A stretch of DNA of 64,000 nt, from assembly GCF_037042905.1 (NCBI RefSeq), contig NC_087245.1:23128001-23192000 (forward strand), written 5' to 3'. The DNA is from Lytechinus pictus. Its lineage: Eukaryota. Positions 1 to 47,993 of this stretch are shown here, in pieces. The notes below the pieces were generated by a model. It was not told where the DNA came from and did no database searches. It was given only the letters and a program-made list of their open reading frames with translations. Every line of letters begins with the position of its first letter. Position 1 is the first letter of the stretch. A program made the translations under genes and the position numbers.

Positions 1-3000
1 GAATGAAAATGTGATTATCTTTAGAGTGATCGTTCCCCCGACCCCGCCACTTAAAGCACATTCGCTCCGTCCCTGAATGGTTTCAAAACAATAAAGGTGG
101 CTTTACTGCAGAGCAGAAGCTCATTTTTTTTGCCTCAATAGGGGCTCCATAGTAGCAGATTTTTCCCATAAATACGCAAAATAAAAAAATGGGGTGGGTG
201 ACCTCGGCAGTTGTCAGAGAAAGAACAGAAGTTATTGGCTGGTGAAACTATTTACTGCAAATGGAATCATCATTAAGGTTATCTTACCCCAACTCCACCA
301 CTTGAAATACCCACGATCCGCCCCTGAATGAAATGTTCAAACAAAGTACATTAAAAGATAATAAGCATTTAATTTTGTGTTTGTTTTTATAGTAAGTGAC
401 AGCGGTAACAGCGGTAAGTAGTTTGAAAGTGCAATTGATCTAAAAATCGGCACAAATTGGCCCCTCCATCTTCTGCGAATTAGTTTCATAATCGAAAATC
501 AAGTGAAGTCAGAGAATAACTATTCAATGAAAATGTGATTATCTTAAGCATGATCGTTCCCCCTACCCCGATACTTGAAGCACACTCGCCCTTATCCCTG
601 AGCGGTTTCCATGACAATAAAAGTGGCTTTACAACATAGTAAAAGCTTGTTTTTTTGCCTCAATAAGGGCTCAATAATGATATTATTTTGGAATGTTTTG
701 TCAAAATCTGTCAAAAATTTGATTTCTTTTAAGTAAAAACGTCATTTGTTCTCACAGCTCTTAAGACATTTTGCCACATATGCCATGTCTAGCTCCCTCA
801 TTTTATTTTTTTGGTGGTGGTGGAGGGGGGGGGGGGGTTGAGTCCCTACATCACTGGTAATGAGTTTGGTTCTGATCAGATTATATCGCCAGTAAATAAG
901 AAACTATTCATTCATGCAATGTTGGATCCCAAAATAGTTTCAAAGAACAGAGGTTATTGGCTGGTGAAACTATTTTTTTTAAGAATAGGAACATCATTAA
1001 GGTTATCTTGCCCAAACTCCTACAAGTGAAATACCCATCATCCGCCCCTGAATGAAATGTTAAAACAATGAACATTTAAAGATATTAAGCATTTTATTAA
1101 TGTTTGTTTTTATAGGCAGTGACAGTGGTAACAGCGGTAAGTAGTATGGAAGTGCAATTGATCTAAAAATCGGCACAAATTGGCCCCTCCATCTTCTTCT
1201 AATTAGTTTCATAATCGAAAATCAAGTGAAGTCAGAGAATAACTATTCAATGAAAATGTGATTATCTTAAGCATGATCGTTCCCCCTACCCCGATACTTG
1301 AAGCACACTCGCCCTTATCCCTGAGCGGTTTCCATGACAATAAAAGTGGCTTTACAATATAGTAAAAGCTTGTTTTTTGCCTCAATAAGGGCACCATAAT
1401 GATATTATTTTTGGAATGTTTTGTCAAAATCTGTCAAAAATTTGATTTCTTTTAAGTAAAAACGTCATTTGTTCTCACAGCTCTTAATACATTTTGCCCA
1501 ATATGCCATGTCTGGCCCCTCATTCTTTTTTTGGTGGTGGTGGGGGGGGGGGGGGGGTTGAATCCCTACATCACTGGTAATGAGTTTGGTTCTGATCAGA
1601 TTATATCGCCAGTAAATAAGAAATTATTCATTCATGCAATTTTGGATCCCAAAGTAGTTTCAAAGAACAGAGGTTATTGGCTGGTGAAACTATTTTTTTA
1701 AAGAATAGGATCATCATTAAGGTTATCTTTAAGATCACCATTAAGGTAATCTTGCCCCAACTCCACCAAGTGAAATACCCACCATCCGCCCCTGAATGAA
1801 ATGTTAAAACAATGTACATTAAAAGATATTAAGCATTTTATTTATGTTTGTTTTTATAGGCAGTGACAGCGGTAAGAGCGGTAAGTAGTTTGGAAGTGCA
1901 ATTGGTTTAAAAATCGGCACAAAATGACCCCCTCAACTTCAGCTAATTACTCTCATGATGAAACAAATTAAAAAAAATAATAGAATATCAAGTGGAGTCG
2001 GATTATAGTTATTGAATGAAAATGTGATTATCTTTAGAGTGATCGTTCCCCCGACCCCGCCACTTAAAGCACATTCGCTCCGTCCCTGAATGGTTTCAAA
2101 ACAATAAAGGTGGCTTTACTGCAGAGCAGAAGCTCATTTTTTTTGCCTCAATAGGGGCTCCATAGTAGCAGATTTTTCCCATAAATACGCAAAATAAAAA
2201 AATGGGGTGGGTGACCTCGGCAGTTGTCAGAGAAAGAACAGAAGTTATTGGCTGGTGAAACTATTTACTGCAAATGGAATCATCATTAAGGTTATCTTAC
2301 CCCAACTCCACCACTTGAAATACCCACGATCCGCCCCTGAATGAAATGTTCAAACAAAGTACATTAAAAGATAATAAGCATTTAATTTTGTGTTTGTTTT
2401 TATAGTAAGTGACAGCGGTAACAGCGGTAAGTAGTTTGAAAGTGCAATTGATCTAAAAATCGGCACAAATTGGCCCCTCCATCTTCTGCTAATTAGTTTC
2501 ATAATCGAAAATCAAGTGAAGTCAGAGAATAACTATTCAATGAAAATGTGATTATCTTAAGCATGATCGTTCCCCCTACCCCGATACTTGAAGCACACTC
2601 GCCCTTATCCCTGAGCGGTTTCCATGACAATAAAAGTGGCTTTACAACATAGTAAAAGCTTGTTTTTTTGCCTCAATAAGGGCTCCATAATGATATTATT
2701 TTGGAATGTTTTGTCAAAATCTGTCAAAAATTTGATTTCTTTTAAGTAAAAACGTCATTTGTTCTCACAGCTCTTAAGACATTTTGCCACATATGCCATG
2801 TCTAGCTCCCTCATTTTATTTTTTTGGTGGTGGTGGAGGGGGGGGGGGGTTGAGTCCCTACATCACTGGTAATGAGTTTGGTTCTGATCAGATTATATCG
2901 CCAGTAAATAAGAAATTATTCATTCATGCAATGTTGGATCCCAAAATAGTTTCAAAGAACAGAGGTTATTGGCTGGTGAAACTATTTTTTTAAGAATAGG

Positions 3001-6000
3001 ATCATCATTAAGGTTATCTTGCCCGAACTCCTCCGAGTGAAATACCCACCATCCGCCCCTGAATGAAATGTTAAAACAATGTACATTAAAAGATATTAAG
3101 CATTTTATTTATGTTTGTTTTTATAGGCAGTGACAGCGGTAAGAGCGGTAAGTAGTTTGGAAGTGCAATTGGTTTAAAAATCGGCACAAAATGACCCCCT
3201 CAACTTCAGCTAATTACTCTCATGATGAAACAAATTAAAAAAAATAATAGAATATCAAGTGGAGTCGGATTATAGTTATTGAATGAAAATGTGATTATCT
3301 TTAGAGTGATCGTTCCCCCGACCCCGCCACTTAAAGCACATTCGCTCCGTCCCTGAATGGTTTCAAAACAATAAAGGTGGCTTTACTGCAGAGCAGAAGC
3401 TCATTTTTTTTGCCTCAATAGGGGCTCCATAGTAGCAGATTTTTCCCATAAATACGCAAAATAAAAAAATGGGGTGGGTGACCTCGGCAGTTGTCAGAGA
3501 AAGAACAGAAGTTATTGGCTGGTGAAACTATTTACTGCAAATGGAATCATCATTAAGGTTATCTTACCCCAACTCCACCACTTGAAATACCCACGATCCG
3601 CCCCTGAATGAAATGTTCAAACAAAGTACATTAAAAGATAATAAGCATTTAATTTTGTGTTTGTTTTTATAGTAAGTGACAGCGGTAACAGCGGTAAGTA
3701 GTTTGAAAGTGCAATTGATCTAAAAATCGGCACAAATTGGCCCCTCCATCTTCTGCGAATTAGTTTCATAATCGAAAATCAAGTGAAGTCAGAGAATAAC
3801 TATTCAATGAAAATGTGATTATCTTAAGCATGATCGTTCCCCCTACCCCGATACTTGAAGCACACTCGCCCTTATCCCTGAGCGGTTTCCATGACAATAA
3901 AAGTGGCTTTACAACATAGTAAAAGCTTGTTTTTTTGCCTCAATAAGGGCTCAATAATGATATTATTTTGGAATGTTTTGTCAAAATCTGTCAAAAATTT
4001 GATTTCTTTTAAGTAAAAACGTCATTTGTTCTCACAGCTCTTAAGACATTTTGCCACATATGCCATGTCTAGCTCCCTCATTTTATTTTTTTGGTGGTGG
4101 TGGAGGGGGGGGGGGGGGGTTGAGTCCCTACATCACTTGTAATGAGTTTGGTTCTGATCAGATTATATCGCCAGTAAATAAGAAATTATTCATTCATGCA
4201 ATGTTGGATCCCAAAATAGTTTCAAAGAACAGAGGTTATTGGCTGGTGAAACTATTTTTTTAAGAATAGGATCATCATTAAGGTTATCTTGCCCGAACTC
4301 CTCCGAGTGAAATACCACCAACCGCCCCTGAATGAAATGTTAAAACAATGTACATTTAAAGATATTAAGCATTTTATTAATGTTTGTTTTATAGGCAGTG
4401 ACAGCGGTAACAGCGGTAAGTAGTATGGAAGTGCAATTGATCTAAAAATCGGCACAAATTAGCCCCTCCATCTTCTGCTAATTAGTTTCATAATCGAAAA
4501 TCAAGTGAAGTCAGAGAATAACTATTCAATGAAAATGTGACTATCTTAAGCATGATCGTTCCCCCTACCCCGATTCTTGAAGCACACTCGCCCTTATCCC
4601 TGAGCGGTTTCCATGACAATAAAAGTGGCTTTACAACATAGTAAAAGCTTGTTTTTTGCCTCAATAAGGGCTCCATAATTATATTATTTTTGGAATGTTT
4701 TGTCAAAATCTGTCAAAAATTTGATTTCTTTTAAGTAAAAACGTCATTTGTTCTCACAGCTCTTAAGACATTTTGCCACATATGCCATGTCTAGCCCCCT
4801 CATTCTTTTTTTTTTTTTGGTAATGGTGGAGGGGGGGGGGTTGAGTCCCTACATCACTGGTAATGAGTTTGGTTCTGATCAGATTATATCGCCAGTAAAT
4901 AAGAAATTATTCATTCATGCAATGTTGGATCCCAAAATAGTTTCAAAGAACAGAGGTTATTGGCTGGTGAAACTATTTTTTTAAGAATAGGAACATCATT
5001 AAGGTTATCTTGCCCGAACTCCTCCAAGTGAAATACCCACCATCCGCCCCTGAATGAAATGTTAAAACAATGTACATTTAAAGATATTAAGCATTTGATT
5101 AATTTTTGTTTTTATAGGCAGTGATAGTGGTAACAGCGGTAAGTAGTATGGAAGTGCAATTGATCTAAAAATCGGCACAAATTGGCCCCTCCATCTTCTG
5201 CTAATTAGTTTCATTATCGAAAATCAAGTGAAGTCAGAGAATAACTATTCAATGAAAATGTGATTATCTTAAGCATGATCGTTCCCCCTACCCCGATACT
5301 TGAAGCACACTCGCCCTTATCCCTGAGCGGTTTCCATGACAATAAAAGTGGCTTTACAACATAGTAAAAGCTTGTTTTTTGCCTCAATAAGGGCTCCATA
5401 ATGATATTATTTTTGGAATGTTTTGTCAAAATCTGTCAAAAATTTGATTTCTTTTAAGTAAAAACGTCATTTGTTCTCACAGCTCTTAAGACATTTTGCC
5501 CAATATGCCATGTCTGGCCCCTCATTCTTTTGTTGGTGGTGGTGGAGGGTGGGGGGGGGGGGGAAATCCCTACATCACTGGTAATGAGTTTGGTTCTGAT
5601 CAGATTATATCGCCAGTAAATAAGAAATTATTCATTCATGCAATGTTGGATCCCAAAATAGTTTCAAAGAACAGAGGTTATTGGCTGGTGAAACTATTTT
5701 TTTAAGAATAGGAACATCATTAAGGTTATCTTGCCCGAACTCCTCCAAGTGAAATACCCATCATCCGCCCCTGAATGAAATGTTAAAACAATGTACATTT
5801 AAAGATATTAAGCATTTTATTAATGTTTGTTTTTATAGGCAGTGACAGCGGTAACAGCGGTAAGTAGTATGGAAGTGCAATTGATCTAAAAATCGGCACA
5901 AATTGGCCCCTCCATCTTCTGCTAATTAGTTTCATAATCGAAAATCAAGTGAAGTCAGAGAATAACTATTCAATGAAAATGTGATTATCTTAAGCATGAT

Positions 6001-9000
6001 CGTTCCCCCTACCCCGATACTTGAAGCACACTCGCCCTTATCCCTGAGCGGTTTCCATGACAATAAAAGTGGCTTTACAACATAGTAAAAGCTTGTTTTT
6101 TGCCTCAATAAGGGCTCCATAATGATATTATTTTTGGAATGTTTTGTCAAAATCTGTCAAAAATTTGATTTCTTTTAAGTAAAAACGTCATTTGTTCTCA
6201 CAGCTCTTAATACATTTTGCCCAATATGCCATGTCTGGCCCCTCATTCTTTTTTTGGTGGTGGTGGGGGGGGGGGGGTTGAATCCCTACATCACTGGTAA
6301 TGAGTTTGGTTCTGATCAGATTATATCGCCAGTAAATAAGAAATTATTCATTCATGCAATTTTGGATCCCAAAGTAGTTTCAAAGAACAGAGGTTATTGG
6401 CTGGTGAAACTATTTTTTTAAAGAATAGGATCATCATTAAGGTTATCTTTAAGATCACCATTAAGGTAATCTTGCCCCAACTCCACCAAGTGAAATACCC
6501 ACCATCCGCCCCTGAATGATATGTTAAAACAATGTACATTAAAAGATATTAAGCATTTTATTTATGTTTGTTTTTATAGGCAGTGACAGCGGTAAGAGCG
6601 GTAAGTAGTTTGGAAGTGCAATTGGTTTAAAAATCGGCACAAAATGACCCCCTCAACTTCAGCTAATTACTCTCATGATGAAACAAATTAAAAAAAAAAA
6701 TAGAATATCAAGTGGAGTCGGATTATAGTTATTGAATGAAAATGTGATTATCTTTAGAGTGATCGTTCCCCCGACCCCGCTACTTAAAGCACATTCGCTC
6801 CGTCCCTGAATGGTTTCAAAACAATAAAGGTGGCTTTACTGCAGAGCAGAAGCTCATTTTTTTTTTGCCTCAATAGGGGCTCCATAGTAGCAGATTTTTC
6901 CCATAAATACGCAAAATAAAAAAATGGGGTGGGTGACCTCGGCAGTTGTCAGAGAAAGAACAGAAGTTATTGGCTGGTGAAACTATTTACTGCAAATGGA
7001 ATCATCATTAAGGTTATCTTACCCCAACTCCACCACTTGAAATACCCACGATCCGCCCCTGAATGAAATGTTCAAACAAAGTACATTAAAAGATAATAAG
7101 CATTTAATTTTGTGTTTGTTTTTATAGTAAGTGACAGCGGTAACAGCGGTAAGTAGTTTGAAAGTGCAATTGATCTAAAAATCGGCACAAATTGGCCCCT
7201 CCATCTTCCGCTAATTAGTTTCATAATCGAAAATCAAGTGAAGTCAGAGAATAACTATTTTATGAAAATGTGATTATCTTAAGCATGATCGTTCCCCCTA
7301 CCCCGATACTTGAAGCACACTCGCCCTTATCCCTGAGCGGTTTCCATGACAATAAAAGTGGCTTTACAACATAGTAAAAGCTTGTTTTTTTGCCTCAATA
7401 AGGGCTCCATAATGATATTATTTTGGAATGTTTTGTCAAAATCAGTCAAAAATTTGATTTCTTTTAAGTAAAAACGTCATTTGTTCTCACAGCTCTTAAG
7501 ACATTTTGCCACATATGCCATGTCTAGCCCCCTCATTTTATTTTTTTGGTGGTGGTGGAGGGGGGGGGGGTTGAGTCCCTACATCACTGGTAATGAGTTT
7601 GGTTCTGATCAGATTATATCGCCAGTAAATAAGAAATTATTCATTCATGCAATGTTGGATCCCAAAATAGTTTCAAAGAACAGAGGTTATTGGCTGGTGA
7701 AACTATTTTTTTAAGAATAGGATCATCATTAAGGTTATCTTGCCCGAACTCCTCCGAGTGAAATACCACCAACCGCCCCTGAATGAAATGTTAAAACAAT
7801 GTACATTTAAAGATATTAAGCATTTTATTAATGTTTGTTTTATAGGCAGTGACAGCGGTAACAGCGGTAAGTAGTATGGAAGTGCAATTGATCTAAAAAT
7901 CGGCACAAATTAGCCCCTCCATCTTCTGCTAATTAGTTTCATAATCGAAAATCAAGTGAAGTCAGAGAATAACTATTCAATGAAAATGTGACTATCTTAA
8001 GCATTATCGTTCCCCCTACCCCGATACTTGAAGCACACTCGCCCTTATCCCTGAGCGGTTTCCATGACAATAAAAGTGGCTTTACAACATAGTAAAAGCT
8101 TGTTTTTTGCCTCAATAAGGGCTCAATAATTATATTATTTTTGGAATGTTTTGTCAAAATCTGTCAAAAATTTGATTTCTTTTAAGTAAAAACGTCATTT
8201 GTTCTCACAGCTCTTAAGACATTTTGCCACATATGCCATGTCTAGCCCCCTCATTCTTTTTTTTTTTTGGTAATGGTGGAGGAGGGGTTGAGTCCCTACA
8301 TCACTGGTAATGAGTTTGGTTCTGATCAGATTATATCGCCAGTAAATAAGAAATTATTCATTCATGCAATGTTGGATCCCAAAATAGTTTCAAAGAACAG
8401 AGGTTATTGGCTGGTGAAACTATTTTTTTAAGAATAGGAACATCATTAAGGTTATCTTGCCCGAACTCCTCCAAGTGAAATACCCATTATCCGCCCCTGA
8501 ATGAAATGTTAAAACAATGTACATTTAAAGATATTAAGCATTTGATTAATTTTTGTTTTTATAGGCAGTGATAGTGGTAACAGCGGTAAGTAGTATGGAA
8601 GTGCAATTGATCTAAAAATCGGCACAAATTGGCCCCTCCATCTTCTGCTAATTAGTTTCATTATCGAAAATCAAGTGAAGTCAGAGAATAACTATTCAAT
8701 GAAAATGTGATTATCTTAAGCATGATCGTTCCCCCTACCCCGATACTTGAAGCACACTCGCCCTTATCCCTGAGCGGTTTCCATGACAATAAAAGTGGCT
8801 TTACAACATAGTAAAAGCTTGTTTTTTGCCTCAATAAGGGCACCATAATGATATTATTTTTGAATGTTTTGTCAAAATCTGTCAAAAATTTGATTTCTTT
8901 TAAGTAAAAACGTCATTTGTTCTCACAGCTCTTAAGACATTTTGCCACATATGCCATGTCTAGCCCCCTCATTCTTTTTTTTTTTGGTAATGGTGGAGGA

Positions 9001-12000
9001 GGGGTTGAGTCCCTACATCACTGGTAATGAGTTTGGTTCTGATCAGATTATATCGCCAGTAAATAAGAAATTATTCATTCATGCAATGTTGGATCCCAAA
9101 GTAGTTTCAAAGAACAGAGGTTATTGGCTGGTGAAACTATTTTTTTAAAGAATAGGATCATCATTAAGGTTATCTTTAAGATCACCATTAAGGTAATCTT
9201 GCCCCAACTCCACCAAGTGAAATACCCACCATCCGCCCCTGAATGAAATGTTAAAACAATGTACATTAAAAGATATTAAGCATTTTATTTATGTTTGTTT
9301 TTATAGGCAGTGACAGCGGTAACAGCGGTAAGTAGTATGGAAGTGCAATTGATCTAAAAATCGGCACAAATTGGCCCCTCCATCTTCTGCTAATTAGTTT
9401 CATAATCGAAAATCAAGTGAAGTCAGAGAATAACTATTCAATGAAAATGTGATTATCTTAAGCATGATCGTTCCCCCTACCCCGATACTTGAAGCACACT
9501 CGCCCTTATCCCTGAGCGGTTTCCATGACAATAAAAGTGGCTTTACAACATAGTAAAAGCTTGTTTTTTGCCTCAATAAGGGCTCCATAATGATATTATT
9601 TTTGGAATGTTTTGTCAAAATCTGTCAAAAATTTGATTTCTTTTAAGTAAAAACGTCATTTGTTCTCACAGCTCTTAAGACATTTTGCCCAATATGCCAT
9701 GTCTGGCCCCTCATTCTTTTGTTGGTGGTGGTGGAGGGTGGGGGGGGGGGGAAATCCCTACATCACTGGTAATGAGTTTGGTTCTGATCAGATTATATCG
9801 CCAGTAAATAAGAAATTATTCATTCATGCAATGTTGGATCCCAAAATAGTTTCAAAGAACAGAGGTTATTGGCTGGTGAAACTATTTTTTTAAGAATAGG
9901 AACATCATTAAGGTTATCTTGCCCGAACTCCTCCAAGTGAAATACCCATCATCCGCCCCTGAATGAAATGTTAAAACAATGTACATTTAAAGATATTAAG
10001 CATTTTATTAATGTTTGTTTTTATAGGCAGTGACAGCGGTAACAGCGGTAAGTAGTATGGAAGTGCAATTGATCTAAAAATCGGCACAAATTGGCCCCTC
10101 CATCTTCTGCTAATTAGTTTCATAATCGAAAATCAAGTGAAGTCAGAGAATAACTATTCAATGAAAATGTGATTATCTTAAGCATGATCGTTCCCCCTAC
10201 CCCGATACTTGAAGCACACTCGCCCTTATCCCTGAGCGGTTTCCATGACAATAAAAGTGGCTTTACAACATAGTAAAAGCTTGTTTTTTGCCTCAATAAG
10301 GGCTCCATAATGATATTATTTTTGGAATGTTTTGTCAAAATCTGTCAAAAATTTGATTTCTTTTAAGTAAAAACGTCATTTGTTCTCACAGCTCTTAATA
10401 CATTTTGCCCAATATGCCATGTCTGGCCCCTCATTCTTTTTTTGGTGGTGGTGGGGGGGGGGGGGGTTGAATCCCTACATCACTGGTAATGAGTTTGGTT
10501 CTGATCAGATTATATCGCCAGTAAATAAGAAATTATTCATTCATGCAATTTTGGATCCCAAAGTAGTTTCAAAGAACAGAGGTTATTGGCTGGTGAAACT
10601 ATTTTTTTAAAGAATAGGATCATCATTAAGGTTATCTTTAAGATCACCATTAAGGTAATCTTGCCCCAACTCCACCAAGTGAAATACCCACCATCCGCCC
10701 CTGAATGATATGTTAAAACAATGTACATTAAAAGATATTAAGCATTTTATTTATGTTTGTTTTTATAGGCAGTGACAGCGGTAAGAGCGGTAAGTAGTTT
10801 GGAAGTGCAATTGGTTTAAAAATCGGCACAAAATGACCCCCTCAACTTCAGCTAATTACTCTCATGATGAAACAAATTAAAAAAAAAAATAGAATATCAA
10901 GTGGAGTCGGATTATAGTTATTGAATGAAAATGTGATTATCTTTAGAGTGATCGTTCCCCCGACCCCGCCACTTAAAGCACATTCGCTCCGTCCCTGAAT
11001 GGTTTCAAAACAATAAAGGTGGCTTTACTGCAGAGCAGAAGCTCATTTTTTTTTTGCCTCAATAGGGGCTCCATAGTAGCAGATTTTTCCCATAAATACG
11101 CAAAATAAAAAAATGGGGTGGGTGACCTCGGCAGTTGTCAGAGAAAGAACAGAAATTATTGGCTGGTGAAACTATTTACTGCAAATGGAATCATCATTAA
11201 GGTTATCTTACCCCAACTCCACCACTTGAAATACCCACGATCCGCCCCTGAATGAAATGTTCAAACAAAGTACATTAAAAGATAATAAGCATTTAATTTT
11301 GTGTTTGTTTTTATAGTAAGTGACAGCGGTAACAGCGGTAAGTAGTTTGAAAGTGCAATTGATCTAAAAATCGGCACAAATTGGCCCCTCCATCTTCTGC
11401 TAATTAGTTTCATAATCGAAAATCAAGTGAAGTCAGAGAATAACTATTCAATGAAAATGTGATTATCTTAAGCATGATCGTTCCCCCTACCCCGATACTT
11501 GAAGCACACTCGCCCTTATCCCTGAGCGGTTTCCATGACAATAAAAGTGGCTTTACAACATAGTAAAAGCTTGTTTTTTTGCCTCAATAAGGGCTCCATA
11601 ATGATATTATTTTAGAATGTTTTGTCAAAATCTGTCAAAAATTTGATTTCTTTTAAGTAAAAACGTCATTTGTTCTCACAGCTCTTAAGACATTTTGCCA
11701 CATATGCCATGTCTAGCCCCCTCATTTTATTTTTTTGGTGGTGGTGGAGGGGGGGGGGGTTGAGTCCCTACATCACTGGTAATGAGTTTGGTTCTGATCA
11801 GATTATATCGCCAGTAAATAAGAAATTATTCATTCATGCAATGTTGGATCCCAAAATAGTTTCAAAGAACAGAGGTTATTGGCTGGTGAAACTATTTTTT
11901 TAAGAATAGGAACATCATTAAGGTTATCTTGCCCGAACTCCTCCAAGTGAAATACCCATCATCCGCCCCTGAATGAAATGTTAAAACAATGTACATTTAA

Positions 12001-15000
12001 AGATATTAAGCATTTGATTAATTTTTGTTTTTATAGGCAGTGATAGTGGTAACAGCGGTAAGTAGTATGGAAGTGCAATTGATCTAAAAATCGGCACAAA
12101 TTGGCCCCTCCATCTTCTGCTAATTAGTTTCATAATCGAAAATCAAGTGAAGTCAGAGAGTAACTATTCAATGAAAATGTGATTATCTTAAGCATGATCG
12201 TTCCCCCTACCCCGATACTTGAAGCACACTCGCCCTTATCCCTGAGCGGTTTCCATGACAATAAAAGTGGCTTTACAACATAGTAAAAGCTTGTTTTTTG
12301 CCTCAATAAGGGCTCCATAATGATATTATTTTTGGAATGTTTTGTCAAAATCTGTCAAAAATTTGATTTCTTTTAAGTAAAAACGTCATTTGTTCTCACA
12401 GCTCTTAATACATTTTGCCCAATATGCCATGTCTGGCCCCTCATTCTTTTTTTTGGTGGTGGTGGGGGGGGGGGGGGTTGAATCCCTACATCACTGGTAA
12501 TGAGTTTGGTTCTGATCAGATTATATCGCCAGTAAATAAGAAATTATTCATTCATGCAATGTTGGATCCCAAAATAGTTTCAAAGAACAGAGGTTATTGG
12601 CTGGTGAAACTTTTTTTTTAAAGAATAGGATCATCATTAAGGTTATCTTACCCCAACTCCACCACTTGAAATACCCACCATCCGCCCCTGAATGAAATGT
12701 TCAAACAAAGTACATTAAAAGATATTAAGCATTTTATTTATGTTTGTTTTTATAGGTAGTGACAGCGGTAACAGCGGTAAGTAGTATGGAAGTGCAATTG
12801 ATCTAAAAATCGGCACAAATTGGCCCCTCCATCTTCTCCTAATTAGTTTCATAATCGAAAATCAAGTGAAGTCAGAGAATAACTATTCAATGAAAATGTG
12901 ATTATCTTAAGCATGATCGTTCCCCCTACCCCGATACTTGAAGCACACTCGCCCTTATCCCTGAGCGGTTTCCATGACAATAAAAGTGGCTTTACAACAT
13001 AGTAAAAGCTTGTTTTTTGCCTCAATAAGGGCTCCATAATGATATTATTTTTGGAATGTTTTGTCAAAATCTGTCAAAAATTTGATTTCTTTTAAGTAAA
13101 AACGTCATTTGTTCTCACAGCTCTTAATACATTTTGCCCAATATGCCATGTCTGGCCCCTCATTCTTTTTTTTGGTGGTGGTGGGGGGGGGGGGTTGAAT
13201 CCCTACATCACTGGTAATGAGTTTGGTTCTGATCAGATTATATCGCCAGTAAATAAGAAATTATTCATTCATGCAATGTTGGATCCCAAAGTAGTTTCAA
13301 AGAACAGAGGTTATTGGCTGGTGAAACTATTTTTTTAAAGAATAGGATCATCATTAAGGTTATCTTTAAGATCACCATTAAGGTAATCTTGCCCCAACTC
13401 CACCAAGTGAAATACCCACCATCCGCCCCTGAATGAAATGTTAAAACAATGTACATTAAAAGATATTAAGCATTTTATTTATGTTTGTTTTTATAGGCAG
13501 TGACAGCGGTAAGAGCGGTAAGTAGTTTGGAAGTGCAATTGGTTTAAAAATCGGCACAAAATGACCCCCTCAACTTCAGCTAATTACTCTCATGATGAAA
13601 CAAATTAAAAAAAATAATAGAATATCAAGTGGAGTCGGATTATAGTTATTGAATGAAAATGTGATTATCTTTAGAGTGATCGTTCCCCCGACCCCGCCAC
13701 TTAAAGCACATTCGCTCCGTCCCTGAATGGTTTCAAAACAATAAAGGTGGCTTTACTGAAGAGCAGAAGCTCATTTTTTTTGCCTCAATAGGGGCTCCAT
13801 AGTAGCAGATTTTTCCCATAAATACGCAAAATAAAAAAATGGGGTGGGTGACCTCGGCAGTTGTCAGAGAAAGAACAGAAATTATTGGCTGGTGAAACTA
13901 TTTACTGCAAATGGAATCATCATTAAGGTTATCTTACCCCAACTCCACCACTTGAAATACCCACGATCCGCCCCTGAATGAAATGTTCAAACAAAGTACA
14001 TTAAAAGATAATAAGCATTTAATTTTGTGTTTGTTTTTATAGTAAGTGACAGCGGTAACAGCGGTAAGTAGTTTGAAAGTGCAATTGATCTAAAAATCGG
14101 CACAAATTGGCCCCTCCATCTTCTGCTAATTAGTTTCATAATCGAAAATCAAGTGAAGTCAGAGAATAACTATTCAATGAAAATGTGATTATCTTAAGCA
14201 TGATCGTTCCCCCTACCCCGATACTTGAAGCACACTCGCCCTTATCCCTGAGCGGTTTCCATGACAATAAAAGTGGCTTTACAACATAGTAAAAGCTTGT
14301 TTTTTTGCCTCAATAAGGGCTCCATAATGATATTATTTTAGAATGTTTTGTCAAAATCTGTCAAAAATTTGATTTCTTTTAAGTAAAAACGTCATTTGTT
14401 CTCACAGCTCTTAAGACATTTTGCCACATATGCCATGTCTAGCCCCCTCATTTTATTTTTTTGGTGGTGGTGGAGGGGGGGGGGGGGGGGTTGAGTCCCT
14501 ACATCACTGGTAATGAGTTTGGTTCTGATCAGATTATATCGCCAGTAAATAAGAAATTATTCATTCATGCAATGTTGGATCCCAAAATAGTTTCAAAGAA
14601 CAGAGGTTATTGGCTGGTGAAACTATTTTTTTAAGAATAGGAACATCATTAAGGTTATCTTGCCCGAACTCCTCCAAGTGAAATACCCATCATCCGCCCC
14701 TGAATGAAATGTTAAAACAATGTACATTTAAAGATATTAAGCATTTGATTAATTTTTGTTTTTATAGGCAGTGACAGCGGTAACAGCGGTAAGTAGTATG
14801 GAAGTGCAATTGATCTAAAAATCGGCACAAATTGGCCCCTCCATCTTCTGCTAATTAGTTTCATAATCGAAAATCAAGTGAAGTCAGAGAATAACTATTC
14901 AATGAAAATGTGATTATCTTAAGCATGATCGTTCCCCCTACCCCGATACTTGAAGAACACTCGCCCTTATCCCTGAGCGGTTTCCATGACAATAAAAGTG

Positions 15001-16810
15001 GCTTTACAACATAGTAAAAGCTTGTTTTTTGCCTCAATAAGGGCTCCATAATGATATTATTTTTGGAATGTTTTGTCAAAATCTGTCAAAAATTTGATTT
15101 CTTTTAAGTAAAAACGTCATTTGTTCTCACAGCTCTTAATACATTTTGCCCAATATGCCATGTCTGGCCCCTCATTCTTTTTTTTGGTGGTGGTGGGGGG
15201 GGGGGGGGTTGAATCCCTACATCACTGGTAATGAGTTTGGTTCTGATCAGATTATATCGCCAGTAAATAAGAAATTATTCATTCATGCAATGTTGGATCC
15301 CAAAATAGTTTCAAAGAACAGAGGTTATTGGCTGGTGAAACTATTTTTTTAAAGAATAGGATCATCATTAAGGTTATCTTACCCCAACTCCACCACTTGA
15401 AATACCCACCATCCGCCCCTGAATGAAATGTTCAAACAAAGTACATTAAAAGATATTAAGCATTTTATTTATGTTTGTTTTTATAGGTAGTGACAGCGGT
15501 AACAGCGGTAAGTAGTATGGAAGTGCAATTGATCTAAAAATCGGCACAAATTGGCCCCTCCATCTTCTCCTAATTAGTTTCATAATCGAAAATCAAGTGA
15601 AGTCAGAGAATAACTATTCAATGAAAATGTGATTATCTTAAGCATGATCGTTCCCCCTACCCCGATACTTGAAGCACACTCGCCCATATCCCTGAGCGGT
15701 TTCCATGACATTAAAAGTGGCTTTACTGTATCGCAAAAAACTAGTTTTTTTGCCTCAATAGGGGCTCCATAACAGCAGATTTTCCCCAAAATATGCAGAA
15801 TAAGGAAAGGGGTGGGTGACTTCGGCAGTGGTCAGAAGAAAGAACTGAGGTTTTTGTTTGGTGTAACTATTTACTGCCCCAACTCCAACACTTGAAATAC
15901 CCACCATCCGCCCCTGAATGAAATGTTAAAACAATGTACATTAAAAGATATTAAGCATTTTATTTATGTTTGTTTTTATAGGCAGTGACAGTGGTAACAG
16001 CGGTAAGTAGTTTGGAAGTGCAATTGATCTAAAAATCGGCACAAATTGGCCCCTCCATCTTCTGCTAATTAGTTTCATAATCGAAAATCAAGTGAAGTCA
16101 GAGAATAACTATTCAATGAAAATGAGATTATCTTAAGCATGATCGTTCCCCCGAACCCGCCTCTGGAAGCACACTCGCTCCGTCCCTGAGTGGTTTCATA
16201 ACAATAAAAGAGGCTTTACTGCAGAGAAGAAACTTATTTTGTTTGCCTCTATAGGGGCTCCATAATAGCAGATTTTTTACCATAAATACGCAAAATAAGG
16301 AAATGGGGTGGGAGACTTCGGCAGTTGTCAGAGAAAGAACAGAAGTTCTTGGCTGGTGAAACTATTTACTGCTAATGGAATCATCATTAAGGCTATCTTA
16401 TCCCAACTTCGCCATTTGAAATACCTACGATCCGCCCCTGAATGAAATGTTTAAACAAAGTACATTAAAAGATAATAAGCATTTTATTTCACATTTGTTT
16501 TTTATAGGCGAGGACAGTAGTAACAGTGGTAAGTAGTTTGGAAGTACAATTGGTTTGAAAATCGGCACTATTTGGCCCCTCTATCTTCTGCTAATTAGTT
16601 TCATAATCGAAAATCAAGTGAAGTCAGAGAATAACTATTCAATGAAAATGTGATTATCTTAAGAGTGGTCGTTCCCCCGACCCCGCCACTTGAAGCACAC
16701 TCGCCCTTATCCCTGAGCGGTTTTCATGACAATAAAAGTGGCTTTACAACATAGCAAAAACTTTGTTTGGCCTCAATAGGGGCTCCATAATAGCAGATTT
16801 TCCAATAAAT
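1..16810. repeat. Highly homogeneous tandem array of long (~720-745 bp) and short (~495-550 bp) units with higher-order structure; continues beyond the left edge
   Basis: Near-identical units. The short unit (marker gaatgaaaatgtgattatctttagagtgat) recurs at 1, 2014, 3281, 6734, 10923, 13651. Higher-order offsets are ~4188 bp (5839/10027, 6580/10769, 7128/11317) and ~2728 bp (10769/13497, 11317/14043, 12756/15487). Confidence 0.97.
393..16528 (+). CDS. Array of 25 tandemly duplicated 21-nt microexons encoding G/V-S-D-S-G-N/K-S heptads
   Basis: Exon starts at 393, 1116, 1860, 2406, 3127, 3673, 4395, 5118, 5839, 6580, 7128, 7846, 8565, 9307, 10027, 10769, 11317, 12037, 12756, 13497, 14043, 14768, 15487, 15982, 16508. 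Each is 21 nt, follows a T-rich tract plus TAG and precedes GTAAGT. Only phase 1 is stop-free in all copies, and several variants are synonymous (GAC/GAT, AGC/AGT, GGC/GGT). Confidence 0.82.
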
Positions 16811-19800
16811 AGGCAAAACAAGAAAAGGGTGGGTGACTTTGTCAGCCCCCTGGGTGGGATAGGCTTTGATTCCCAGCACTTCTTTATAGTAAGCTTATAG
16901 GAAAAAAAATCACCCCCTTTAGCCTCCAAGTATTTTGAAGAAAATTAAAGTGGCTTCAATATATAGCAGAAACACCCCTTGTTTCATGAGGCTCCAAAAT
17001 CTGGAATTTTCCACGAAAAATTGGTGGGTGACCTCAACATAATTGAAAGCGTACTCATTAAAAATTTTCACATTGTGCAAAATAATATTTTTCATGAAAA
17101 ATCAAAGATAGCCGCCAAAATTGCCAATTTTGAAGCCCATGGGACACGATTTGGCAAACGATGGTGTTTTTATCTGCTTATCATCCTATTGATGTTTACA
17201 ACATGAAGCTGATAATCTTGATTTTGTGTTGATTTATATAGGTGATGATAGCAATCCTAGCGCCGACGGTGGTGACGATGGTTAGTATTTCCTACAATGG
17301 AAAATAATGTAAGGTCGGCATTTAAAAAAAAAAAAAAATGAAGGCTGGATACGAAATATGCATCGTAACAAAAAATTAAATGACAAAAAAATTGTTATAA
17401 CTTTAGCTTAAAATCTGGGATAGTGGGTAGCCATAGTGATGGTGGTGATGATGATTATAATAACAATTATTTGAAATAATAGGGATTGTAAGATAAACGA
17501 GTAATACATTTTGAGATCAGTAAAAATAAGTTACCTTTAATGGAATCTTCTCCCTCCCCCATTAGAGTACACCAGCGTCGCCCTAGCCTCTTGTCAAAGC
17601 CCTGATGGCTGCTTTTTGTCAAATGAACAAATAGATATAACGAAAAGGAGTATACATCTCTCAAAAGAAGCAATGGACTATAATTGATCTATTGTCATAT
17701 AGGGTAAAACGGCTCTTACACGTTCAAAGATTTCAACGCGGATCACCGTGGATCTCATTCCTCTTCGATGTTCTAGCTAGTATACCAGGACCAAGGGAAC
17801 GATTTCTTTTTCTACACTGTTAGAAAAATTATCCTTAAAATAAAAGAAGTTCCTGCAGCAGAGTCTCGAGAACACCTGTCATCTTACTAGATTGCGTAAT
17901 CTTACAGGAAATTGGTATTTGGTGTAAGGAACCGTACAAATTTCCTTTAATAAAACACCCTTTTCCCCTTTTTAAACAGACCTGTTCTGTTAAATTGCAG
18001 AAAATTCCTGTTTTATGAATTTACAGAATGATTATCTTATTGATTTCTGCAAAATCTTCTTTTTTCTGTAAAATCAGGGGTTTTTTTAACAGTGTAGGGG
18101 AAGCTGGTTTGGAACAAAAATTTCACAAGTAAAAAAAAAAAGGAGACCATTCCAAAATGAATGTGATTTTGGTCAGGAAAAATTTGAAAAGCAAAATATG
18201 AAAATTAAAAGGGTTTCACTATTAAAGTGAAGGTGATTTTTTTACTGTTTAGCATACCTATCTCATTTCCAGAGTGGGCTTCCCATGGTGAATAACACAC
18301 GAGGCACCCCCCCCCCCGACAAATCTTTGGGGTGCTCTAAAAAACCCCAGCACCCCCTCCCTCCCAGGATCTTGCTAGCTACTCTTTTAACAGAAACAAC
18401 AACAAAAAAAGTGAAAATTAAAAAGGGAAAATAAGTTTGTAAAAATTCAAAGTGGGCACTGTACTAAAATATGTATAACAATCAAACCATCAATGCCTTT
18501 GTCAGTAAATATTAAAACCATCATGGTGCTTTATCGACCTTTCTCATACGCGAAATCAATTTTTTGTAAATAGGATCATTATTAAGGTTATCTTGCCCGA
18601 ACTCCACCAAGTGAAATACCCACCAGCCGCCCCTGAATGAAATGTTAAAACAAAGTATGTTAAAAGATAATAGGCATTTTCTTTATGTTTGTTTTTATAG
18701 GTAGTGACGGCAGTAACAGCGGTAAGTAGTTTGGAAGTGCAATTGATTTAAAAATCGGCACAAAATGACTCCTTCAACTTTTGCTAATTAGTGTCATAAT
18801 CAAACAAATTAATGAAATATAATCGAAAATCAAGTGAAGTCAGAGTACAACTATTCAATGAAAATTTGATTATCTTTAGAGTGATCGTTCCCCCGACACC
18901 GCCGCTTGAAGCACACTCGCTCCGTCTCTGAGTGGTTTCATGACAATAAAAGTGGCTTTACAACATAGCAGAAACTTATTTTTGGGCCTCAATAGGGGCT
19001 CCATAATGATATAATTTTTTGAATATTTTGTCAAAATCTGTCAAAAATTTGATTTCTTTTGATTAAAAACGTCATTTGTTCTCACAGCCCTTTAGACATT
19101 TTGCCCCATATGCCATGTCTAGCCCTCTCATTTTTTTTTGGTGGTGGTGGGGGGGGGGGGTTGATTCCCTACACCACTGGTAATGAGTTTGGTTTGGATC
19201 AGATTTTATCGCCATTAAACAAGATAATATTATTAATTCATGCAGGCAATAGGCAATAAATAGGCAAAACAAGAAAAGGGTGAGTGACTTCGGCAGCCCC
19301 CTGAGTGGGATAGGCTTCGATTTCCCAGCTAATATAAAAAAATCACCCCCTTTAGTCTCCAAGCATTTTGAAGAAAATTAAAGTGGCTTCAATATATAGC
19401 AGAAACGTCCCTTGTCTCATGAGGCTCAAAAATTGAGAATTTTCCAAGAAAAATGGGTGGGTGACTTCAACATAATTGAAAGAGTACTCATTCAAAATGT
19501 TCACATTGTGCAAAGAAAAATATTTCTCATGAAAAATCAAAGATAGCCGCCAAAATTGCCTATTTTGAAGCCCACGGGACACGATTTGGCAAACGATGGT
19601 ATTTTAATCTGCTTGTCATCCTATCGATGATGACAACAGAAGAAGTGTAATGTTTACAACGTAAAGCCGATAATCTTGATTTTGTGTTGATTTGTATAGG
19701 TGATGACAGCAATGCTAGCGTCGACGGTGATGACGATGGTTAGTATTTCCTATACAAGGGAAAATAATGTAAGGTCGGCATTTATAAAAAGGAAAATGAA

Positions 19801-22800
19801 GACTGGATACGAAATATGCATCGTAACAAATTATTAAATGAAAAAGAAAATTGTTATAACTTTAACTTAAAATCTGGGAAAGTGGGTAGCCATAGTGATG
19901 ATGGTGATGATGATAATAATAACAATTATTTGAAATAATAGGGATTGTAAGATAAAAGAGTAATACATTTTGAGATCAGTAAAAATAAGTTACCTTTAAT
20001 GGAATCTTCCCCCTGCCCCATTAGAGTACACCAGCGTCGCCCTAGCCTCTTGTCAAAGCCCTGACGGCTGCTTTTTATCGAATGAACAAATAGATATAAC
20101 GAAAAGGAGTATACATCTCTCAAAAGAAGCGATGGACTTTTGATATATTGTCATATAGGTTAAAATGGCTTTTACACATTCAAAGATTTCAACGCGGATC
20201 ACCGTGGATCGTCATTCCTCTTCGATGTTCTAGCTACCAGGACCAAGGGAACGATTTTAATTTTTTACTAGGGGGTGCTGGTTTGAAAGAAAAAATTCAC
20301 AAGTAAAAAAAAAGGGGGGGGCATTCCAAAATGAAGATTTTGGTCAGGAAAAATTTGAAAAGCAAAATATAAGAAAGGAAAAAGGGTTTCACTATCAAAG
20401 TGAGGTGATTTTTTTACTGTTTAGCATACCTTTCTGATTTCCAGAGTGGGCTTCCCATGGTGAATAACACACGCAGCACCCCCCTCCCCGACAAATCTTT
20501 CGGTGCCTCAAGACCCCCAGCACACCCTCCCTCTATAGCTACTCTCTAATGTAACATAAACAACAATAAGAAAAGTAAAAAGTTTAAGGGGAAAATAAGA
20601 TTTTTTTTAATGTAAATATAGTACCATACAAAATTATTATACAAATTATAGAACTCTTATGAAAACTTGATCAATGGCAGATATGAGATGAAACATGGAA
20701 CACTGACAAATAATCATCCATATGTAACAGGATAAGTCCTCCCCAAAAATATATATATGTTTTTTGTCTCGCATACCAGAGGTGAAGGCGAGACTTAGGG
20801 ATCCAAATGTCGTCCGTCCGTCCGTCACAAACATAACACAGAACTCCGCAACCGTAAGTCGCTTTTCAGCCAAACTTGGACGTAAGATGTAACTAGGGAA
20901 CCTGCATGTTATGCTGCAGTCGGAGGTCACGTGGTAAGGTCAAAGGTCATTTTCATGTCAACGTTAAAGTCTACTTGCAAGACTCTCTTATGACACATAA
21001 CTCTGCAACCGTAAGTCATTATTCACCCAAACTTGGGTTGTACATATACTGAGGAGAACTGCATGTCATGGCGCAATCAGAGGTCACATGGTAAGGTCAA
21101 AGTTCATTTTTAGGTCAATGTTATGACACATAATGGCAACCGTAATTCACTTGTAAATCAAACTTGGGTTGTAGGTGTACTTAGGAGCCCTGCATGTTAT
21201 TGTGTTCGGAGGTCACATGGTAAGCAAGGTCAAAGTTCATTTTGAGGTCAACATTAAAGTTTACAGGCAAGATTTTTGTGAAAAATGTTATTTCATCCTA
21301 GTTATTTCACATTGAAGATTTGTTACAATTCTGTTGCGAGCCCTCGCAAATCACAATATATCTGGTTATGTTTATAAGTGGGTGAGACACAAAATCGCCT
21401 ATGCCTTGTTTAGTTTGCGTTCATCTGCCTATACATATCATTGCCATAATTATATTCATATTTTGATATACATGTACCCTTCTTAATTTAACCAGCTATG
21501 TTTCTCGCTCTTCAGTTTCCCACTGGGGTTGAATCAGAATTACATATGAGTATTACTACTCTCATACTCCTCTCTACTGTCCTCATCTCCCCCCAACCCT
21601 CTTCCCTACTCTATTGTATCTCCTTTTCCCATTTTCTCTACACTCTGGTCTTCCTTTCCTTAATCTGCCAAGTCACCCAAAGTGTTTGTCTTTTTATTTG
21701 TAAATAATATATTTATAATGTTTTATTGCTTTATCATGTTATCATATTATTGTTATATTTTGTAAATCCAATGCAATTCAGCCTAAATGGCTGCGATATG
21801 TGGATATTCTAATAAAAACTTCAAACCTTCAAACCTATAGGCCCTGACGCTGACGCTGGTGACAGTGACGTTGGTGAGTATCTTATTGAAGAGAAATATG
21901 AAAAAAATACTTTCTTAATCAAGAAGAAATAGAGATTAATAATAATGATAGGCATTTATATAGCGCCATCTAACTAGAAATATTCTATTCCGAGGCGCAT
22001 TGTTTATTATTATTATTACCCCGGCTTTAGCTCGAATTGCCTTTCAGCGCTCAGTGCATTCAAGGAATTACTCCTGCCGGGTACCCATTCACCTCACCTG
22101 GGTTGAGTGCAGCTCAATGTGGATAAATGTCTTGCTGAAGGAAATTACGCCATGGCTGGGATTCGAACCCACGACCCTCTGTTTCAAAGTCAGAAGACTA
22201 ATCCACTGGGCCACAACGCTCCACAGGATGAGCATATCCGGTCAATGGCATTTAATTTTGTTTGGTATTACTGCGGAAGTAATAATATACCATAAATTGA
22301 TAATGATAATTGTTTTGGATAAAATGATAAAGATATATGAATTTAAAGAAATCCTTTGTCTAATTTTATAATCACATTGAAAAAAGGCTGATGATATGCA
22401 ACGCACCTGAAGGAATAATGACGGAAAAAGTCAAATACGAATGTACTGCAATGTGATGTTTATATTATATGGTAGCTCCATCATCAGTAAATAATGTTTT
22501 TACGTTGTGCCCTGAATAATATAAAGCAAAATTGGTCTCCATATGATTTTTATTTTTTGGCCTATTCTTGGTTTTGTATATTGGAGTTGATAGTGAAAAT
22601 TGAAGAAGCTGCATGTAAAAATGAGTTTTTATTATGTCTTTTTTTTTCAGCAGTTGCTAATCCACCACCTCCTCCTCGTAAGTTATACTTAAAGATCAAC
22701 TCTACCCAGAATAATGTTGGCTGTAATTAATAGAGCAAAATCAAAGAAGCATAAACGCTGAAAATTTCATAAAAAACGGATGTAAAATAAGAAAATTATG

Positions 22801-24598
22801 ACATTACAAGGTTTCGCTTATTTTTCACAAAACAGTCATGTGCATAAACTCAGTGACATGCAAATGAGAGTCGATGATGTCCCTCACTTACTATTTCTTT
22901 TGGGGGTTTTTATTGTTCGAATTATACAATATTTCAATTGTTAACAAATTTGAGAATAGGGGCCAAAATGACTGAACAAAAAATGTTAAATCACTGCTCT
23001 AGGAGGAATAAAAATTTGTTTTACAGGAAAATGAGGAAAATTAGAATATTTCATACAATAAAATACAAAAGAAATAGTGAGTGTGTGACGTCCTGAAAGC
23101 TCTCACTTGCATACGGACTAGGATGTGCATATTACATCTGATTTTGATGAAATTATCAGTGTTATGCAAATTGGATTTCCCCCATTTTATTCGAATGAAC
23201 TTTTCATTCGGATGGACGTGTCCTTTAACGATATTACAATTTCTATCAAAGTCATGTTTTACTAAATAATATATATAGCCAGTTATCCGTAAAGAGATTC
23301 ATCTGATTGGTAGAACTAAAACAAACAACTTTTCATCTTTTCACAATAAATTTGGATTTTACTTTGTGAGCCTCTGCATACTTGTTTCTGCCACGGAAAT
23401 AACCTGCATGGTTCTTCAGACTAGCGCTTACACGCCGTAGACGGGGGAGTATCGGCAGCGCGACAGTCGGTGAGAATGGGAATGTACCTTGTTCTTCTGG
23501 ATGTGAATGACCTCCCTAATCCACTTTTTGTTTATTTATTGTAATTTCTAGCTAGGATCTGGCTCATATTCCAGTTTATTTTTGTGATTCCTTTGGGTTA
23601 ATGGTCACTAATTGCCGTTTGTCCAGTTTCTCCTAGATTGCAAGGAATTTGGTATATACCAACCTTTTGAGTCATCAGATTCAATAGGGGTGGTATACTG
23701 ACTTCTTTACCATGATTGCAACAAGGTGTATATTGGAGAAACTGCAAGGAAGTTTGGAATAAAGAAGGCTGAAAACAAACAAGAAGCGGAGAGTCTAAGC
23801 AAAGCCCACTTCACAAGATCGAGAAGGGGGGGGGGGTGGGGGAACTGTTAGTGACCATTTAGCCAAAAGAAATCACACAATAAACTGTAATAAGAGCCAG
23901 ACCCGAGGTAGAGATGATAATGAATACACAGTGTGGATTGGGGAGGCCATTCACATCCAAAAGAAACATTCAATGAACAGAGACGCTGGACAATACAAAC
24001 TTTCTACTTATGGACATTTCTATTCTCACGGACTGCCGCGCTACCGATACTACCCCCATCTACGGCGAGTCAGCGCTAGTCTGAAGAAAGCCTGCAGAAC
24101 CGAGAAGGCGAAATCGCACAAAAAATGAAAATCTATTTCATTTTATTTAATATTAGCCAGTGTCTTTTTCATGAAATGTTTTCTGTCAGATCATGATTTG
24201 AAAAAATGGTTACAAAGCTTATTTATTTATGATTTAAATCATTCCTATTCATATAATTGTAAATATACAGAGAAATCATAATGATAAATGTACTATCATT
24301 AATAATGGTAATCGTATATTCATCATTATATTCCCTTAGGTATTAAGGTCTTAACTTTCTATGTTAATGCAAGAGACTCGTTTTTGCTCCTAAATTAACC
24401 AATACGTTTTTGGTATTTGTAAACAGCTCCTGGCCCGGTTGAATGTGCCACAGGTCCACAGTTTATCGGTGCAATCGACCCAGTCAACGGTATCACCATC
24501 TCCTTCACTATTGTCACCGATGCTGATGTTTTCATAGTCGCATTTTCCCCGAAATATACGTATTCTGGCCCTGAAGTCTATCAGATGAGTAAGTATAT

Positions 24599-24644
<46 letters not shown>

Positions 24645-47800: not shown

Positions 47801-47993
47801 TCCAACTCGTCAAAGCAAAAACTTACACATTCCTCTTTGCCATTCAACATTACTCTATAATTCTTTATCTTCTGTTGGGGTACGTGAATGGAATAATCTA
47901 AATTTCGATATAAGATCCAGTACTACGATAAATCGATTTAAGTGTCTGTATAAGAAACTTATATTTAGTAAAATGTTTTCCATGGCTGAGTAG
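44827..47993 (+). pseudogene. LINE ORF2 endonuclease/reverse transcriptase with a single frameshift
   Basis: Motifs HLNARSL, VTETW, GGGVALY, CGDFN, SDHFPV (APE) and NYRPIALL, DLSKAFD, GVPQGSVLGP, FADDT (RT). Adding one A to the A9 run at 47305-47313 joins ORF 44827-47343 to ORF 47382-47993 (HKKKKKIPNSIESVKIDNVFIERKQNIFFLGIY). Confidence 0.9.

Follow-up and report, generated by a model that had tools for sequence, protein, structure and literature searches.

The Lytechinus pictus genome contains what appears to be a satellite of ~30 kb, and the question raised by this locus is whether each repeat unit carries a 21-nt exon of a protein-coding gene. The 64,000-nt stretch analysed here (contig NC_087245.1, C1:23128001-23192000, referred to as the window) opens inside the repeat, and a preliminary description of its first 16,810 positions had proposed an array of 25 coding microexons that build a Ser/Gly/Asp heptad-repeat protein. 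Our analysis indicates that the apparent satellite is very probably the middle of one sea-urchin protein-coding gene, where it constitutes a real coding microexon array. A regular expression describing the cassette (T[AT]TAG + 21 nt + GTAAG[TC]) was run over the window and gave 25 cassettes, with matches from 388 to 16503 (exon starts 393 to 16508), followed by a 26th at 18701. Each unit was found to hold exactly one cassette of T-tract-TAG, 21 nt and GTAAGT, as had been proposed. The copy number of 25 was confirmed for positions 1-16810, but accounts for only part of the array, which starts upstream of position 1: a looser expression (89 kb) revealed 16 further cassettes upstream of the window, alongside 2 unrelated chance matches, bringing the total to 42. 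The start-to-start spacing of cassettes ranges from 495 to 761 nt, the sole exception being a distance of 2193 nt between the last two, a gap within which a 39-nt exon is located. No spacing hints at a decayed or missed copy and, as there is no unit without a cassette, none appears to have been lost.

The cassettes share a single open frame. Reading from base 1 of the exon encounters TAA in the ten copies beginning TAAGTGAC and reading from base 2 encounters TGA, and the sole frame open in all copies borrows one base from the preceding exon. The cassette sequences thus agree with the earlier statement that phase 1 is the only frame available to every copy. The heptad encoded is (G/V/D)S(D)S(G)(N/K)S, mostly in the form of GSDSGNS, GSDSGKS or VSDSGNS, and all 12 distinct exon variants are open in the phase-1 frame; those of the array centre include the GAT/AGT-marked cassettes at 5118, 8565 and 12037. 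An intact AG and GTAAGT flank 42 of 42 cassettes, and the polypyrimidine-TAG acceptor and the GTAAGTAGT donor are invariant (positions -8 to -1 and +1 to +9 in all 42), with 12 of the 21 exon columns varying; part of the splice-signal invariance is built in, given that the search expression itself demands TAG and GTAAGT. The 3' half of the cassette exon, AGCGGTAAC, nearly repeats the exon end and donor (AGCG followed by GTAAGT). In the K-type cassettes (1860-1880 and eight others) this internal copy is turned into GGTAAGAG, a plausible predicted cryptic donor, the use of which would leave an in-frame 12-nt exon.

When the 811.7-Mb genome was searched with a degenerate form of the cassette pattern, 41 forward-strand matches were obtained, all of them within C1:23117640-23146727, on the strand of the gene and between its N- and C-terminal exons. 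The reverse strand yielded 0 matches to the same pattern, as did the genome for a reversed control pattern. The cassette signal is far above chance.

Conceptual splicing of 55 exons distributed over ~53 kb produces a coding sequence of 2046 nt, corresponding to 681 residues with a single terminal stop. Five N-terminal exons, located 14-25 kb upstream of the window by a tblastn-type genome search with an L. variegatus relative and including the N-domain exon at C1:23114228-23114479, are followed by a 15-nt exon, 41 tandem cassettes, a 39-nt exon, the 42nd cassette, exons of 39, 33, 27, 162 and 240 nt, and the terminal exon. As the 54 introns are uniformly phase 1 and the length of each internal exon is divisible by 3, any internal exon could be included or skipped in frame. 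Exons of ≤39 nt make up 47 of the 55, all symmetrical, and contribute 1035 of the 2046 coding nt, about half. The product contains 166 Ser, 103 Gly, 94 Asp + Glu, 58 Asn, 30 Lys + Arg and 11 Cys.

Evidence of splicing was obtained by comparing window 15900-28800 with sequence runs X1, X20, X21 and X22. Runs X1-X4 contain 0.20-0.27 of the sampled words of window 24400-28800, approximately the exon share of that stretch. A 631-nt contig from run X1, at a depth of 34.5, contains the GT..AG joints 16002>16508, 16528>17242, 17280>18701, 18721>19700, 19738>21841, 21873>22654, 22677>24427 and 27838>28379, together with pieces on 24427-24583 and 27599-27838, and a contig from run X20 (depth 104.7) repeats the joints 16002>16508 and 16528>17242. 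The depth of run X1 is zero in the unique intron bins 16762-17192, 18917-19347 and 19779-20640. As the C-terminal exons match this locus alone in the genome, the spliced contig represents spliced RNA as opposed to an intronless retrocopy. Cassettes 15982, 16508 and 18701 are exons. A spliced heptad-heptad junction had been expected in RNA and is found as 16002>16508 in the contigs of both runs. The X1 joints and the 681-residue frame likewise bear out that the cassettes share the phase of the downstream exons and are joined in frame to those at 24427 and 27599. At exon 22651-22677, the X1 contig takes the distal AG of CAGCAG, with the exon starting at 22654. The contig has 205 bases upstream of 24427 compared with 198 bases of mapped exons, which puts its end a few bases 5' of cassette 15982, the expected outcome when 31-mers are repeated; the contig bears only on cassettes from 15982 onward and is silent on those upstream. 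The raw RNA runs X21 and X22, of which ~6% each was read, show essentially no depth on the unique exons and have no bearing on the array.

Part of the array is also present in a RefSeq protein. XP_063956129.1 (P0012, 345 residues, 'dentin sialophosphoprotein-like [Lytechinus pictus]') corresponds to the conceptual product at 344 of 345 residues, over exons 1-26. It carries the first 20 cassettes in exact genomic order, including the Leu from the sole cassette ending in T, and ends G-K-stop by read-through into GTAAGTAG. The latter is found directly 3' of every cassette (for example at window 414-421), where an unspliced read gives G-K-stop, and its position after the cassette explains the odd ...SGK end of the truncated model. 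The NCBI pipeline already treats 20 cassettes as exons, but the model is truncated; the view that gene finders would hide the array entirely was thus overstated, and holds only in so far as the model stops short. No Lytechinus pictus protein with the C-terminal exon was found in a search of proteins of 141-2000 residues. Evidence of use is accordingly available for 3 of the 42 cassettes from spliced contigs and for 20 from the RefSeq model, leaving 19 with neither. Within positions 1-16810, it covers six of the 25 cassettes, those at 393, 1116, 1860 and 2406 by the RefSeq model and those at 15982 and 16508 by the contigs.

A phmmer search with the L. variegatus protein against 1.84 billion representatives returned 195 hits, of which four are real homologues (P0012, P0013, P0017 and an unnamed fragment, P0033), all from sea urchins; ~190 of the 195 cover only the low-complexity stretch, roughly residues 200-290. 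The 240-nt exon (27601-27840) shares 90% identity with L. variegatus XP_041473643.1, which has the same architecture with GSNSGNS heptads and belongs to a cluster of 11 distinct sequences labelled isoforms X1-X15. In S. purpuratus, the LOC105440177 model contains the N-domain and ends in GNGDDSS heptads, and a model of neighbouring accession on the same contig starts with GNGDDSS heptads and ends with the C-domain. The S. purpuratus orthologue (P0163 + P0013) is probably a single gene that annotation divided in two within its own run of heptads.

These data allow the coding array to be weighed against a non-coding satellite or transposon-derived repeat with a fortuitous splice-like motif. The region does look satellite-like, and part of the unit (window ~1385-1657) resembles dispersed repeats elsewhere, at 66-87% identity among the 39 matches listed. 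However, those matches are confined to the intron part of the unit and never include the cassette, which is found nowhere else in 812 Mb; three cassettes are present in spliced contigs, and heptads occur in one RefSeq protein and two orthologues. A fortuitous motif is therefore hardly credible. Membership of a satellite or transposable-element family was also rejected as a classification, the array occupying a single locus on one strand with copies spliced into contigs.

Comparison of the units indicates how the coding array has evolved. Each unit of the array body shares 97-100% identity with its best partner, compared with 89-90% for the edge units u1, u39 and u40. A K-ending cassette is always followed by a V cassette 543-548 nt later, forming a higher-order pattern. 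Approximately 27 of the 40 aligned units contain an insert of ~175-220 nt, inside the part matching genome-dispersed repeats, which suggests that a mobile element inserted into a single intron and then multiplied along with its unit. The dispersed repeat itself is ~260 nt long, carries a GGTGGTGG(G)n run and is present in most array introns (the ~720-nt units); the ~546-nt units are without most of it. The high identity of the central units combined with the co-amplified intron repeat supports the earlier proposal that the repeat number changes by duplication of whole intron + exon units. Scanning one intron for inverted and direct repeats identified only short weak pairs, with no pairing of intron ends. 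Heptad position 3 is Asp in all copies here (GSDSGNS) and Asn in the copies of the sister species L. variegatus (GSNSGNS), a difference that is a mark of concerted evolution. Beyond the array body, a block of cassette unit and 39-nt exon is duplicated (window 16400-17300 and 18560-19760), and the array unit 1000-1720 shares 84% identity with window 18585-19244.

Homogeneity of this kind raises the concern that the copy number was inflated or scrambled by tandem-repeat assembly, in which case the gene would be real but the count of 42 wrong. Several units have a 100% identical counterpart, a situation where assemblers err, but the K-then-V pattern is ordered throughout and many units have private differences, and we consider such an artefact improbable.

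A number of points weigh against the array being coding along its whole length, or against parts of that case. The RNA label of runs X1-X4 is only a guess, and part of the RefSeq model may derive from ab initio prediction. The central 19 cassettes (starts 3127-15487) lie outside the transcript evidence obtained. Conservation within the array is no higher for the exon than for the intron (pi 0.095 vs 0.114; 43% vs 41% of columns vary), hence the homogeneity reflects duplication or conversion rather than coding constraint, and conservation within the array is by itself no proof of such constraint. The L. variegatus models have only ~12-16 heptads, not 42. At the protein level, the structure prediction described below (AlphaFold2) is that of the L. 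variegatus orthologue, based on an alignment of 7 sequences and with a mean predicted local distance difference test score (pLDDT) of 57, and Pfam gave no family at E ≤ 1 for P0001, P0013 and P0163. The confinement of the RNA evidence to cassettes from 15982 onward, the equal exon and intron diversity and the lower heptad number in L. variegatus would each be consistent with only the edge cassettes being functional, the homogenised centre representing an intronic satellite skipped by the spliceosome and the protein containing far fewer heptads. Nevertheless, the 20 consecutive cassettes of the RefSeq model extend well into the homogenised part of the array, the splice signals show no variation across all 42 units whereas ~41% of intron columns vary, and the coding frame of no copy contains a stop. 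We therefore regard a functional edge around a silent centre as unlikely; the 19 central cassettes are presumably used as well.

Within a coding array, each mRNA could carry the full set of cassettes or a subset of the 42, with regulated or stochastic skipping generating a ladder of linker lengths in 7-residue steps. The latter is a sub-question of the coding array and no denial of it, and we consider it on balance the likelier behaviour. Phase-1 introns and internal exons of a multiple of 3 nt keep any skip in frame. The L. variegatus RefSeq isoforms differ by gaps of 7 and 14 residues in the heptad run, as well as nearby by 4, 7, 11 and 31 residues and by one Ala, the last of these matching the tandem CAGCAG acceptor at 22648-22653. 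Isoforms of the S. purpuratus C-domain model differ by exactly one heptad and one 25-residue block. In-frame skipping to give isoforms of variable length, as the preliminary description had anticipated, is hence supported by the models of relatives, but no such isoform was observed in the Lytechinus pictus genome, where the RefSeq model takes cassettes 1-20 consecutively and in genomic order; moreover, where microexons are near-identical, misalignment can give rise to spurious isoform models. A search for shorter database proteins with heptads (query P0012 residues 199-345) scored nothing, which is no test of skipped-exon orders. In the L. variegatus isoforms X14 and X15, 31 residues are missing, among them the heptads corresponding to the duplicated block of cassette unit and 39-nt exon, together with portions of both 13-residue VEDSNPS blocks.

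The cassettes and neighbouring short exons are predicted to encode a disordered acidic segment of ~350 residues, rich in Ser, Gly, Asp and Asn. In the L. variegatus model, residues 50-198 (pLDDT ~65-92) and 354-482 (mostly ~60-80) are all-beta, and the intervening residues 199-353 have a pLDDT of ~30. Foldseek placed tandem-repeat galectins on top (E ~1e-7), and VIA-align against single galectin domains gave a Z of ~13 for each domain, with a root-mean-square deviation of 2.3-2.5 Å over 125-134 aligned residues, 6-13% identity and targets of 139-145 residues in length. The prediction is thus of two domains with a galectin fold, connected by a disordered linker. Galactoside binding by galectins requires a tryptophan, and this stacking residue is missing: neither domain of P0001 or P0012 contains any tryptophan. 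No match to the Pfam Gal-bind_lectin family or to any other galectin Pfam entry was obtained, and the translations of two window exons gave 0 families at E ≤ 10. On the basis of the model, the domains are best described as galectin-fold and not as demonstrable galectins. In a MAFFT alignment of the S. purpuratus C-domain on the N-domains, 14 columns are invariant, which indicates homology between the N- and C-domains. The N-terminus, MFRLLILVALLGFGLLHVEA, is hydrophobic, with residues 2-14 modelled as a helix, and reads as a predicted signal peptide, such that the product may be secreted.

Other assignments of the protein were discarded. A xylanase match from a profile search of PDB sequences reached only E 0.25-0.42. 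PF12248 (Methyltransf_FA), suggested by ESM Atlas clusters (0.95, 171 shared features), is a lead only, Pfam itself giving no match. Dentin sialophosphoprotein and the fungal Hyr/Iff proteins, which provide automatic model names, resemble the product in a Ser/Asp/Gly/Asn-rich composition only, and membership of either was rejected; the repeat of dentin sialophosphoprotein is encoded within a single large exon.

The closest architectural parallels are found in unrelated genes. The P exons of avian troponin T are tandem microexons, up to seven in number, that each encode one short acidic motif (PMC7581897). The array shares with avian TNNT3 the tandem duplication of very short exons, each lengthening a variable region by one acidic motif, and its 42 head-to-tail 21-nt exons, each with its own acceptor and donor, are frame-compatible with one another and with the flanking exons. 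In contrast to TNNT3, which has up to seven such exons and a sarcomeric product, here there are 42, in a predicted secreted two-domain protein, and the introns are homogenised with the exons in the manner of a satellite-like higher-order repeat; the sequences themselves are unrelated. The avian P exons are 15 nt long. Repetitive or disordered segments are likewise assembled from small frame-compatible exons, by tandem duplication and with skipping that yields length variants, in the 54-bp exons of fibrillar collagens, titin PEVK and the short exons of caseins. The unit here is much shorter (21 nt, 7 residues), and the copies are near-identical including their introns, suggesting recent or ongoing homogenisation.

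The preliminary description had also drawn a parallel with schistosome micro-exon genes (MEGs). Most of the coding sequence of these genes lies in very small symmetrical exons, they have signal peptides, alternative splicing generates near-identical variants, and they are apparently restricted to platyhelminths (PMC4350168). The parallel is sound as an analogy, small symmetrical exons contributing about half of the coding sequence here, but does not extend to relationship: no MEG is among the real homologues from the phmmer search. Furthermore, the present microexons are tandem copies of near-identical sequence, coding for a low-complexity repeat that has a folded domain on either side. A third comparison concerns the linker, alternative splicing of which yields galectin-8 isoforms of short, medium or long size that differ in function (PMC5796159). 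The L. variegatus model has two galectin-fold beta-sandwich domains and a linker in common with the tandem-repeat galectins (galectin-8 and -9), from which it differs in sequence (6-15% identity) and in a linker that is approximately ten times longer and highly acidic. What is unusual in the present gene is its scale, with as many as 42 of the 21-nt exons, the way exon and intron have been homogenised together like a satellite, and the position of the array as a linker between paired lectin-like domains. Literature searches turned up no account of this gene, or of such an architecture, in sea urchins.

The anatomy of the array suggests that whole intron + exon units (~0.55-0.76 kb) are duplicated and homogenised by unequal crossing-over or gene conversion, and each cassette would add one heptad to a disordered acidic spacer between two domains. 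Asp-Ser-Gly and Ser-Gly motifs favour phosphorylation or glycosaminoglycan attachment, and their repetition here, with both present in each heptad, makes heavy modification of either type plausible. Cassette number, and possibly regulated or stochastic skipping, may then set the length and charge of the spacer. A tentative extension, which we think possible but rather doubtful, is that the coding satellite acts as a ruler tunable by splicing and by evolution, with 42 interchangeable phase-1 microexons setting spacer length, charge and modification load. Should this be the case, unequal crossing-over would alter the spacer between individuals by 7 residues per 0.55-0.76-kb unit, and combinatorial skipping would alter it between cells; the locus would be a natural system for how the spliceosome defines dozens of consecutive 21-nt exons and, to our knowledge, by far the largest tandem microexon array.

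In repeat proteins, length usually varies through slippage within a single exon. Here, the unit of change is an intron with a 21-nt exon, 97% of it non-coding, and the array evolves like a satellite, with a homogenised centre and older edges. It provides a test case for the recognition of long microexon runs by the spliceosome (invariant acceptor and donor, an in-frame stop past every donor, introns of 0.5-0.7 kb), for concerted evolution acting together on coding sequence and splice signals, and for whether the length of a linker between paired lectin-like domains is tuned by exon number. It also carries a warning for annotation, as the same gene has been modelled in three ways in three sea-urchin genomes: complete with 15 labelled isoforms, truncated after 20 cassettes, and apparently split into two genes.

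Exons of the microexon gene in and immediately upstream of the window (window coordinates unless stated otherwise)
Feature	Position	Strand	Evidence or remark
15-nt exon (VPDSS)	directly before the array	+	
16 upstream cassettes	C1:23117643-23127867 (window -10357 to -133)	+	regular expression
Tandem intron + microexon array within the window, 25 units of 495-761 nt	1..16810	+	continues ~10.4 kb upstream
Cassette exons, 21 nt each	starts 393, 1116, 1860, 2406, 3127, 3673, 4395, 5118, 5839, 6580, 7128, 7846, 8565, 9307, 10027, 10769, 11317, 12037, 12756, 13497, 14043, 14768, 15487, 15982, 16508	+	
Four cassettes, exons 23-26 (393-413, 1116-1136, 1860-1880, 2406-2426)	393..2426	+	last in XP_063956129.1
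Nineteen central cassettes (exon starts 3127 to 15487)	3127..15507	+	intact splice signals and frame
Cassette GSDSGNS	15982..16002	+	joint 16002>16508 in X1 and X20 contigs
Diverged cassette GEDSSNS	16508..16528	+	joints 16002>16508 and 16528>17242 in X1 and X20
39-nt phase-1 exon (GDDSNPSADGGDD)	17242..17280	+	joints 16528>17242 and 17280>18701
Isolated 42nd cassette GSDGSNS	18701..18721	+	joints 17280>18701 and 18721>19700 in X1
39-nt phase-1 exon (GDDSNASVDGDDD), duplicate of 17242-17280	19700..19738	+	X1 joints
33-nt phase-1 exon (GPDADAGDSDV)	21841..21873	+	X1 joints
27- or 24-nt exon ((A)VANPPPPP)	22651..22677	+	tandem CAGCAG acceptor at 22648-22653
162-nt exon, first half of predicted C-terminal galectin-fold domain	24427..24588	+	X1 piece 24427-24583; 95% identity with P0001 residues 345-399
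240-nt exon, second half of predicted C-terminal domain	27599..27838	+	X1 piece 27599-27838; match to relative
Terminal exon: HCLD, stop (end of coding sequence 28392), then 3' untranslated region with a provisional end	28379..28800	+	joint 27838>28379; X1 contigs cover 28379-28800

Several other elements were noted in the window. A (TA)23 microsatellite is located at 24594-24640, six bases past the donor of exon 24427-24588. Intronic repeats at 20641-21071, 21934-22364 and 22796-23226 have very high depth in all four runs, with a summed word depth of up to ~60,000 in the contig runs and ~800 in the raw RNA reads. These reads carry several differences from the window sequence, which suggests that they derive from expressed dispersed repeats (resembling short interspersed nuclear elements) and not from this locus. 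ARAGORN identified no transfer RNA over the whole window, these repeats included, and Rfam at gathering thresholds returned nothing over 1-30000. Downstream of the gene, 44827-47993 contains an open frame of 838 residues with endonuclease and reverse-transcriptase domains (Pfam E 1e-11 and 1e-33), followed by a frame of 230 residues, and is, by its domain content, a retrotransposon of the type without long terminal repeats (non-LTR).

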